Shown: positions 46,061-47,295, numbered from the stretch's first letter. The stretch is 64,000 nucleotides of DNA from Oleiphilaceae bacterium (GCA_033721915.1 JAWWAC010000011.1:1131-65130); one strand, 5' to 3'. Notes: generated from the letters alone by a model not told the origin. Made by a program: numbers and translations.

Positions 46061-46156
46061 GGACAGGCACCTCCAGTGGGAGGTAAAGAAAGAGGTAAAG
46101 ACATAAAGCATAAAGGACAGGCACTGCAATGGCACTGCAATATCAAGGACAGGCAT
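46061..46156 (+). repeat. Cluster D of the GGGACAGGCAC word (2 exact plus 1 variant), next to the 3' end of the RAYT gene
   Basis: AAGGACAGGCAC at 46061 and 46115, and AAGGACAGGCAT at 46147. Interspersed with the hairpin CCTCC-AGTG-GGAGG, the tandem GGCACTGCAAT x2, and repeated GGTAAAG / ATAAAG. Confidence 0.85.
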
Positions 46157-46329
46157 TGCGCAGTAGGAACACTCTTTCGTGGGATATTCAGGGGCATAAT
46201 TCGCTGCAAGATTGGATCGTTGTTACCTGATTGCTTCAAATCTCAGCCCAAGCCCCCAGGTGGGCGGAATTACAGGCACGGAAAGTACCTGGCAGGGGCA
46301 CCAGTTTGTGTATTTGAATGAGGGTGGGG

Positions 46330-47295
46330 TCAGGCAACTTTCAGTGGTACCCGGTGTGCTCGTCTCGAGTGTCTGCGGTGGTATTGCGCTTCAAACTGGT
46401 GAGCCTGGGTAAGCCAGTCAGCTTCAGTAAGCCCCAATCGAGTGAGAATCGGCTTGACCAGTGGCGATATTGCACCCTGTTTTCTCGGGTCAATGGCCCG
46501 GCCGGTATAGTCGACCAGTTTCATGTAGGCGAGATAGTGGAAAGGTATCCCGGTTTTTTTGGTGCTGGTGGTGCTCTCTTCAAAATGAAGCAGGGGTTTC
46601 AAGGGGAGTTTTGAATAGTTAAGGGCCCGCTGGCCATGCATGGCATGGGAGAGGCTGGCTCGCGGTTGGATGCGCTCCTGAATGCTGGTGTGGTCGGAGG
46701 TTTCCGGTGTGTCGGCTATACCAGCCCGAATGGGGTTGAGATCCACGTAGGCCATACAGGACAGCAAGGCCTCTTCATTTAGAAGAGGCTGGCTTTTGAA
46801 GCGGGCTTCCCAGAAGTGGCCAGTGACCTCGTCCTCTTTGTTGGCTTGACGGGCAATGGGCTCATTCAGGCATTTCATGAACCAGCTGAGATCGGTCAGA
46901 TTTTTTCGGTAGAGAGTGGCGAGGTCCGCGACAGTCTCCTGTTCAGCGGCGGAAAGGGCATTGCCTGCCAGATGCCTTTGAACCAGTAACGGGCCCTTAT
47001 ACAGGGAGGTCCAGCGTTTCAGAACCTCATCCGTTGTCCATTCTTCGGCTTGTTCCGGGCACAGCTTTACCACCAGGTGGTAATGGTTGGGCATCACTGC
47101 GTAGGCACAAAGATCGATAGTAAAGATGGAGGCCAGCAGGTGAATCCTGTCTTCAATCCATTGCCGTCTATACTCGTAGCTTTTACCGGTGTGATGATCC
47201 TTGCCACACAGAAAGCTTCGGCGCACACAGCGGCACATAAGGTGATAGTAGGGGGTGTCAGACAGGGAGATCTGCTGGTGGCGAGGTTGCGTCAT
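46330..47295 (-). CDS. REP-associated tyrosine transposase-like protein (RAYT; IS200/IS605-type Y1 HUH enzyme with long C-terminal extension)
   Basis: HUH motif in AVMPNHYHLVV and catalytic-Tyr block CMAYVDLNPIRAGIA. 321 aa with visibly lower GC than neighbours. No terminal inverted repeats or partner tnpB seen. Confidence 0.8.
   Translation of the reverse strand: MTQPRHQQISLSDTPYYHLMCRCVRRSFLCGKDHHTGKSYEYRRQWIEDRIHLLASIFTIDLCAYAVMPNHYHLVVKLCPEQAEEWTTDEVLKRWTSLYKGPLLVQRHLAGNALSAAEQETVADLATLYRKNLTDLSWFMKCLNEPIARQANKEDEVTGHFWEARFKSQPLLNEEALLSCMAYVDLNPIRAGIADTPETSDHTSIQERIQPRASLSHAMHGQRALNYSKLPLKPLLHFEESTTSTKKTGIPFHYLAYMKLVDYTGRAIDPRKQGAISPLVKPILTRLGLTEADWLTQAHQFEAQYHRRHSRRAHRVPLKVA

Follow-up and report, generated by a model that had tools for sequence, protein, structure and literature searches.

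A conserved inverted 10-mer as the probable terminal repeat of elements built by long HUH/single-tyrosine transposases of subclass 2.3

What does a long HUH-type transposase have to do with a short sequence repeated beside its gene? The question is raised by a locus in a 64,000-nucleotide stretch of DNA from an Oleiphilaceae bacterium (GCA_033721915.1, JAWWAC010000011.1:1131-65130), the whole of which is referred to as the window. A gene for a 321-amino-acid protein is followed there by three copies of a 10-mer, GGACAGGCAC, referred to as the word. An earlier note on this DNA took the protein for a REP-associated tyrosine transposase (RAYT) and proposed it as the mobiliser of the word, which it rightly described as non-palindromic. 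We compared the source genome (G000, 3.35 Mb) with a congeneric genome (G001), whose genes are ~78% identical in DNA, and with homologous loci in other genomes, where family-wide counts were made with GGACAGGCA. The word is also written within GGGACAGGCACT, and GGACACCCAC is a variant of it. Our findings strongly support a partnership between enzyme and word. They also make it probable that GGACAGGCAC is the conserved terminal inverted repeat of elements built by transposases of TnpA_Y1 subclass 2.3.

The placement of the word was analysed around 80 further loci, picked by protein similarity alone from species-representative genomes of many gammaproteobacterial genera (Ectothiorhodospira, Arsukibacterium, Marinobacter and others). 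In the 5' flanks, GGACAGGCA occurs 57 times in sense and 10 times in antisense orientation, whereas the 3' flanks hold 103 antisense copies and no sense copy. At least one correctly oriented copy is present in 65 of the 80 loci. Measured from the protein match, the innermost copies have median positions of -94 (interquartile range -119 to -85) and +215 (interquartile range 201 to 237). At the orthologous loci of G001, G005, G026, G039, G006 and G020, the exact 10-mer is sense upstream and antisense downstream, that is, it points inward from both sides. The gene had been said to show no insertion sequence (IS) ends, which is wrong at the level of the family because the word copies are the ends.

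The closed genome G013 (6.38 Mb) reveals where the unit stops. Its seven paralogous copies are 78-95% identical over ~1287 bp, and the sequences outside are unrelated. The shared unit begins at ...AACAAGACACCCAC and finishes at the inverted counterpart. The similarity is thus bounded by the inverted word, which marks the word as the end of a mobile unit. In a maximum-likelihood tree of 78 proteins we notice two well-supported clades. In clade I, the A word GGACAGGCA is present at 57 loci and the B word at none; its sister, clade II, has 13 loci with this different (B) word, GACACCCA, also written GGACACCCA. In G013, where both clades are present, each is accompanied by its own word. Word type therefore covaries with protein clade.

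Gene and word arrays also occur together. Direct pairs of either word at 6-36 nt spacing were sought in 41 related genomes, with reversed words as controls. Such arrays are present in 12 of the 26 genomes with a protein match and in none of the 15 without (Fisher P = 0.0014), and the reversed controls gave zero everywhere. The earlier note had put forward co-occurrence as a check. One of the genomes examined, G030, has weak protein matches only (E 4.8e-6). Its contigs C3, C41, C60, C61 and C90 each start with GGACAGGCAC at an identical offset (positions 37-49), which suggests a repeated element breaking the assembly.

Comparison with the congeneric genome indicates movement at the window locus itself. 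In G001, the alpha/beta-hydrolase and metallo-beta-lactamase (MBL)-fold hydrolase genes are ~15 nt apart and form an empty site; in the window, a 1459-nt insert sits between these two convergent host genes. The gene copy of G001 is at another site, where three words begin 33 nt 3' of tRNA-Pro(CGG). At the tRNA-Pro(CGG) site of G000 (window 4661-4705, 4901-4977), a toxin-antitoxin islet stands in place of the transposase gene. Among the spacers comparable between the two genomes, we found no arrays at orthologous positions. The lower GC content noticed earlier is confirmed, at 0.542 for the open reading frame and 0.52 for the insert against 0.61 for the window and 0.625 for the genome. The proposed link between HUH enzyme and word is accordingly upheld by the geometry of the 80 loci, the G013 boundaries, the covariation with clade, the co-occurrence and the empty site in G001.

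Within the insert, the word is found where the family pattern places it on the 3' side. Two copies on the plus strand (46061-46070 and 46115-46124) are exact GGACAGGCAC and the third (46147-46156) reads GGACAGGCAT; they lie 174-269 nt past the stop codon, as against the 170-270 nt first estimated. The spacers of this array hold perfect tandem duplications (46080-46101 and 46120-46141), namely GAGGTAAAGA twice with a 12-nt period and GGCACTGCAAT twice, and a CCTCC-AGTG-GGAGG hairpin adjoins the outermost word. On the other side of the gene, the innermost 5' word of relatives is located 6-45 nt upstream of the ATTGACAG box, and at this place the window copy has no word. Closer to the stop codon, a half-word, GTGCCTGTAATTC, corresponds to a TGCCTGAAATTC block conserved ~60 nt past the stop in orthologues. 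In the window as a whole, the 11-mer AAGGACAGGCA occurs 7 times against an expectation of 0.04. The 10-mer has 122 exact copies in the genome, 25 of them in the window, and the reversed control has 54. One exact copy lies in frame within the MBL-fold hydrolase gene, with a partial duplicate, AAGGACAAGGACAGGCAC, ahead of it. The G001 orthologue has no such copy, which may or may not be part of the element.

The 321-aa protein carries the HUH and Y...NP blocks that were first read from it. The HUH motif is N70-H71-Y72-H73 within AVMPNHYHLVVKL (PNHYHLVV), the W motif F161-W162-E163 within HFWEARF, and the predicted catalytic tyrosine Y183 within AYVDLNPIRAGIA (AYVDLNPIRAG). All columns that are invariant in the homologue alignment A1, including HUH and the tyrosine, are kept, and both WE of the W motif and YVDLNP of the Y motif belong to these columns. 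The Pfam model Y1_Tnp matches at 24.8 bits (cut-off 23). In an AlphaFold2 (AF2) model (pLDDT 78.5, pTM 0.81), the HUH-to-Tyr distance is 110 residues and helices at 80-155 lie between the two. The top fold match in the PDB is 4ER8, E. coli TnpA_REP (E 5.5e-4, TM 0.63), followed by IS200/IS608/ISDra2 transposases. Residues 195-321 form a conserved C-terminal tail. Modelled alone, these 127 residues gave a weak model (pLDDT 67.5, pTM 0.38); a PDB fold search with this domain returned no match at E below 3, and a PDB sequence search was empty. The enzyme is a long HUH/single-tyrosine single-strand DNA transposase related to TnpA_REP. By its length and motifs it fits TnpA_Y1 subclass 2.3, an assignment made by comparing features with Table 1 of the published survey (Quentin et al., 2018; PMC6006769).

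About 8000 homologues have 316-330 aa and are named just 'transposase' or 'RayT' in databases; they come mainly from Marinobacter, Ectothiorhodospira, Neptuniibacter, Oleiphilus, Arsukibacterium and metagenomes. Homologues of 45-50% identity are also present on 13 chromids or megaplasmids in PLSDB, from Pseudoalteromonas, Vibrio, Shewanella, Photobacterium and Aeromonas. Examples are NZ_CP152309.1 (Vibrio tritonius) and NZ_CP076856.1 (Shewanella decolorationis), and the annotation reads 'transposase', 'hypothetical protein' or nothing. Matches to the protein occur in 26 of the 41 related genomes, two of which have 34-35 matches. G000 has one full gene copy and a C-terminal remnant on contig C1. 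This remnant (C1:139878-140219; locus L021 1465-1806) is 66% identical to residues 194-292 and lies directly 3' of a nucleotidyltransferase/HEPN-like gene pair, with exact words near at C1:136164, 138435, 141002 and 141279. The earlier description of the gene as RAYT-type, single-copy and domesticated does not fit: the equivalog cut-off for REP_Tyr_transpos is not reached, and several relatives are multi-copy. In G000 the full gene is single-copy, and in G001 it occupies another locus. G000 also contains a second, unrelated Y1 gene at C33:25558-26391 (+) (locus L022 1171-2004), a 277-aa reading frame that probably yields ~243 aa from MPRAHRV. Its product, with CNHVHLLV, YWEDRY and YIDLNMVRAG, resembles subclass 2.1 (TIRYT-like), and its flanks are without GGACAGGCAC.

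The word is also found away from any transposase gene. In G000, ~20 arrays carry 2-7 copies on one strand, successive copies starting 16-73 nt apart, and ~16 of these arrays are clearly intergenic. Their conserved unit spans only 10-11 nt. Of 68 copies, at least 65 agree at each of nine positions; the final position is C in 56 copies and T in 11, and a G precedes the word at position -1 in 45, giving the consensus (G)GGACAGGCAC. The spacers mix unique sequence with locally duplicated units of word plus spacer, and plain tandem duplication is seen in 6 of 14 arrays. None of the spacers gave a significant match to other parts of G000, and 13-mer repeats stay at chance level. A longer public scaffold from this organism places contig C17 directly after C11 (C10 is on another scaffold), so that 9 of the 20 arrays are found in 51 kb around the gene (binomial P ~7e-12). 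In the closed genome G005, a 0.36-Mb region with both gene copies holds 14 of the 20 exact words. The strand of the arrays agrees with the local GC skew in 15 cases and disagrees in 5, a weak hint of a strand bias, as the skew values are tiny and the contigs short.

In three genomes, left and right end arrays without a gene stand head to head (G032:C20:3169-3278, G032:C57:30700-30809, G032:C87:80268-80369, G040:C335:2255-2423 and G014:C1:1106060-1106322). They form stems of 9-16 bp, in which the innermost pair is perfect. One such pair is present in G000, at C1:112591-112628. The head-to-head pairs may represent miniature non-autonomous elements or what excision has left behind. As the fused arrays form stems, a single word behaves as half of a REP-like hairpin. 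The features of the window are collected in Table 1.

Table 1. Positions of the transposase gene, its end structures and other word-bearing sites in the window
Feature	Positions	Strand	Basis or context
tnpA_Y1 subclass 2.3 gene, 321-aa HUH/Y1 transposase	46330-47295	-	Open reading frame, motifs, domain models
Whole insert relative to G001 (end array, 3' untranslated part, gene, promoter region)	46004-47462	-	Synteny and empty-site alignment
3'-end array of three words, antisense to gene, inward-pointing	46061-46156	+	Position and orientation fit family pattern
Sub-terminal half-word GTGCCTGTAATTC, sense strand	46267-46279	-	Alignment of 44 3' regions
ATTGACAG box, -35-like, conserved upstream of orthologues	47349-47357	-	Flank comparison
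Exact word inside upstream MBL-fold hydrolase gene (47463-48488)	47808-47817	-	513 nt from start codon, orientation as 5' end copy
Solo word and two degenerate 15-nt tandem units, 200 nt 3' of tRNA-Pro(CGG)	4691-4700	-	Site of gene copy in G001
Dispersed array, 7 words, no gene	21137-21334	+	Absent from matching G001 spacer
Dispersed array, 5 words in two groups, no gene	28263-28454	-	Array scan
Dispersed array, 7 words, including tandem word+ACTTTCG units	39976-40178	+	Array scan
Dispersed array, 2-3 words	50432-50486	+	Exact copies not seen in corresponding G001 spacer

Folded structures were sought around the gene as well; hairpins are what Y1 transposases normally recognise. The imperfect hairpin reported at about 46272-46290 is indeed present, one base off at 46273-46291, where the half-word overlaps it. 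Its stem, on the sense strand, has 7 bp including one G-T pair, and the region is no more stably folded than shuffled sequence (z +0.5 and +1.0). Across the 3' regions, stems of 4 bp or more that precede RG are seen in 45% of sequences versus 21% of shuffles. A covarying stem-loop ~30 nt past the stop is found in part of the family only, in Marinobacter and Ectothiorhodospira-type loci, and was missed by RNAalifold. Its stems read CTGGC/GCCAG, TTGGC/GCCAA, TCGGCA/TGCCGA and TCAGTTG/CAACTGA (for example L049, L052, L056, L057, L101 and L118; in the window ~46293-46310), and the conserved TGCCTGAAATTC block follows ~15 nt later. These sequences are suggestive of a 3' sub-terminal hairpin that may be part of the family end.

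We propose that a complete element would consist of at least one inward word, a TTGACA promoter, tnpA, ~170-200 nt of 3' sequence and at least one inverted word. The window copy is a 1.46-kb insertion that has kept its 3' array of three words and lost its 5' word, so that the gene is probably immobile. The enzyme itself is probably intact and, with all invariant residues kept, probably still acts on copies of the word. It would recognise the word and cut at or beside it; binding, cleavage and strand are predictions here. We speculate that left and right inverted words, paired as a stem in single-stranded DNA, could be the substrate; other Y1 enzymes act on the foot of a stem. The ~20 gene-less arrays, which are concentrated around the gene, would most likely be products of enzyme activity. 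They may grow by multiplication of ends through tandem duplication of word plus spacer, together with local seeding of ends.

Several observations weigh against the word being a terminal repeat on which this enzyme acts. Exact copies on both sides are found in only 17 of the 80 loci, so complete two-ended elements are a minority, and the window copy is itself without a 5' word: as noticed earlier, the 5' flank (47296-47462) has none, even with up to two mismatches. Locus L010 (G039) lies in clade II on a long branch yet has A-type words; it is the one genuine exception in the tree, one further discordant locus being a misclassification. Many of the 122 exact copies are singles inside genes and probably arose by chance; the reversed control has 54. 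A conserved 3' hairpin of the kind recognised by Y1 enzymes was not predicted by RNAalifold on 24 sequences. The clustering in cis could be the mark of a variable genomic region. Finally, the role of the enzyme at the word is predicted from sequence.

Arrays are crowded near the gene in two independent genomes, which hints at local action that would be out of the ordinary in the HUH/Y1 superfamily. The terminal-repeat reading also has a bolder form. Subclass 2.3 enzymes might act mainly in cis, a fixed gene repeatedly depositing or multiplying single 10-nt ends in nearby intergenic spacers, with the resulting repeat-spacer-like arrays persisting under selection. We regard this as possible, although on balance doubtful. 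If it were true, the arrays would have selected roles, for example as promoters, terminators or single-strand DNA processing sites, and repeats would arise by an HUH-driven route distinct from REP/REPIN copying. The constancy of the 10-mer across gammaproteobacterial orders would then point to a rigid protein-DNA code and thus to a programmable module for single-strand DNA recognition.

Another explanation takes the word as the preferred insertion target instead of the end of the element, with arrays made in some other way and the transposon homing in on them. Such behaviour has a precedent: IS200/IS605 elements (IS608, ISDra2) insert next to a short specific target, which then abuts the left end. 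The existence of gene-less arrays and the many loci with words on one side only agree with it. Yet the words are inverted and inward on both sides, with no sense copy downstream of the gene, the G013 paralogues include the word in the conserved unit at both ends, and no genome lacking the gene has arrays. We therefore consider a mere target unlikely, although target and end are not fully mutually exclusive.

The gene could also be an inactive or tolerated relic, the arrays being fossil ends that grow by replication slippage with no current role for the enzyme. The one-ended window copy, the truncated remnant on C1 and the arrays with plain tandem duplication speak in its favour. An intact HUH motif, tyrosine and full set of invariant residues speak against it. 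So does the near-invariance of nine of the ten word positions between unrelated spacers, and so do arrays at non-orthologous spacers in two species as diverged as G000 and G001. The constancy of the word and the non-orthologous sites argue for continuing renewal or selection, and we hold the relic explanation to be quite unlikely.

Could the protein be a classical domesticated RAYT that serves REP/REPIN hairpins elsewhere, with the word unrelated to it? HUH and Y...NP are common to TnpA_REP, which is also the best fold match, and G000 has a single full copy. The earlier note had allowed for a classical REP hairpin elsewhere in the genome. The commonest 16-mer in G000 occurs 9 times and the commonest 21-mer 8 times, however, so there is no REP/REPIN population; a ranking of 10-12-mers was uninformative, being dominated by coding bias. 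The NCBIfam equivalog REP_Tyr_transpos (NF047646) scores 42.3 bits, below its cut-off of 80, and the published survey gives no REP for subclass 2.3 (PMC6006769). Such a RAYT is highly improbable. Equally implausible is the idea that the arrays are binding-site clusters of a host regulator or nucleoid protein whose nearness to the gene is coincidental. The arrays do lie in intergenic spacers, some in promoter regions, but in several orders the 10-mer accompanies the transposase gene in a constant inverted arrangement; it also differs between the protein clades and forms no arrays in related genomes without the gene.

With the word as the probable terminal repeat, the system can be set beside those already described. 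It shares with IS200/IS605 elements (IS608, ISDra2) the catalytic fold, a small element with a promoter inside the left end, and common copy boundaries in multi-copy hosts. In contrast, its Y motif is Y...NP where theirs is Y...Q, and its ends are inverted repeats where theirs are two different sub-terminal hairpins on one strand. No tnpB, a frequent partner in that family, was found in the flanks of the window gene.

REPtrons, reportedly described by Nunvar in 2010, by Bertels and Rainey in 2011 and by Ton-Hoang in 2012, are said to combine a TnpA_REP/RAYT gene with REP, BIME or REPIN repeats. Our system resembles them in its HUH/Y1 enzyme with Y...NP, in inverted short-repeat flanks whose repeat is also dispersed intergenically, in a clade-specific repeat and in head-to-head pairs that form hairpins. 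It differs in that the word is non-palindromic, lacks the GT[AG]G foot and has tens rather than hundreds of copies. The gene is moreover multi-copy and IS-like in several hosts, and the protein is twice as long and under the REP_Tyr_transpos cut-off. The RAYT/REP idea of one enzyme clade with one short repeat would thereby extend to a repeat that forms no hairpin by itself.

The closest precedent for such a repeat is the TIRtron, in which RAYT-like genes (TIRYTs) have non-hairpin terminal inverted repeats (TIRs) with GGGGWSAS (Di Nocera, De Gregorio and Rocco, 2013, BMC Genomics 14:522; PMC3733652). Some TIR families are moderately abundant there, as single copies, dimers or clusters. Since TIRtrons are known, a non-hairpin partner is not categorically new, and the expectation that it would be was overstated. 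Our elements share the Y1 gene with non-hairpin terminal inverted repeats at the family level, the window keeping the 3' side only. (G)GGACAGG and GGACACC resemble GGGGWSAS, and GGGACAG matches GGGWSAS, but the fourth G is not conserved. Most TIRYTs fall in subclass 2.1, with helix-turn-helix-like tails and proteins of ~240 aa (PMC6006769). The present system differs by its subclass 2.3 enzyme, by a repeat of 10-11 nt that is unchanged across orders, and by direct arrays with variable spacers that are concentrated near the gene.

Subclass 2.3 is the longest and among the least understood of the HUH/Y1 transposase branches. Its published members (Quentin, Siguier, Chandler and Fichant, 2018, BMC Genomics 19:475; PMC6006769) have a median of 325 aa, with insertions in the core and a C-terminal tail in two parts, average 3.9 copies per genome, occur in Chromatiales and Alteromonadales and are listed as 'REP: no'. 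Automatic and manual searches alike gave no associated repeats for subclasses 2.1 and 2.3. We found no later literature on subclass 2.3, and the papers listed by a full-text search for the word strings were all eukaryotic and unrelated. Our protein agrees with the subclass in length (321 aa), in NHYH, WE and YVDLNP, in the long HUH-Tyr spacer and the long C-terminal tail. It also agrees in its hosts, which are Chromatiales, Alteromonadales and Pseudomonadales-type Gammaproteobacteria, in having several copies in some of them, and in its patchy distribution. As the sole systematic survey had no repeat, the enzyme had no candidate substrate. In contrast to that description, an inverted 10-mer bounds the genes here, often in arrays, and forms gene-less arrays as well. 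A partner repeat for subclass 2.3, which the survey did not find, is what is new. It would explain the origin of the puzzling intergenic word arrays in these genomes, and it offers a concrete, testable candidate substrate for these enzymes.

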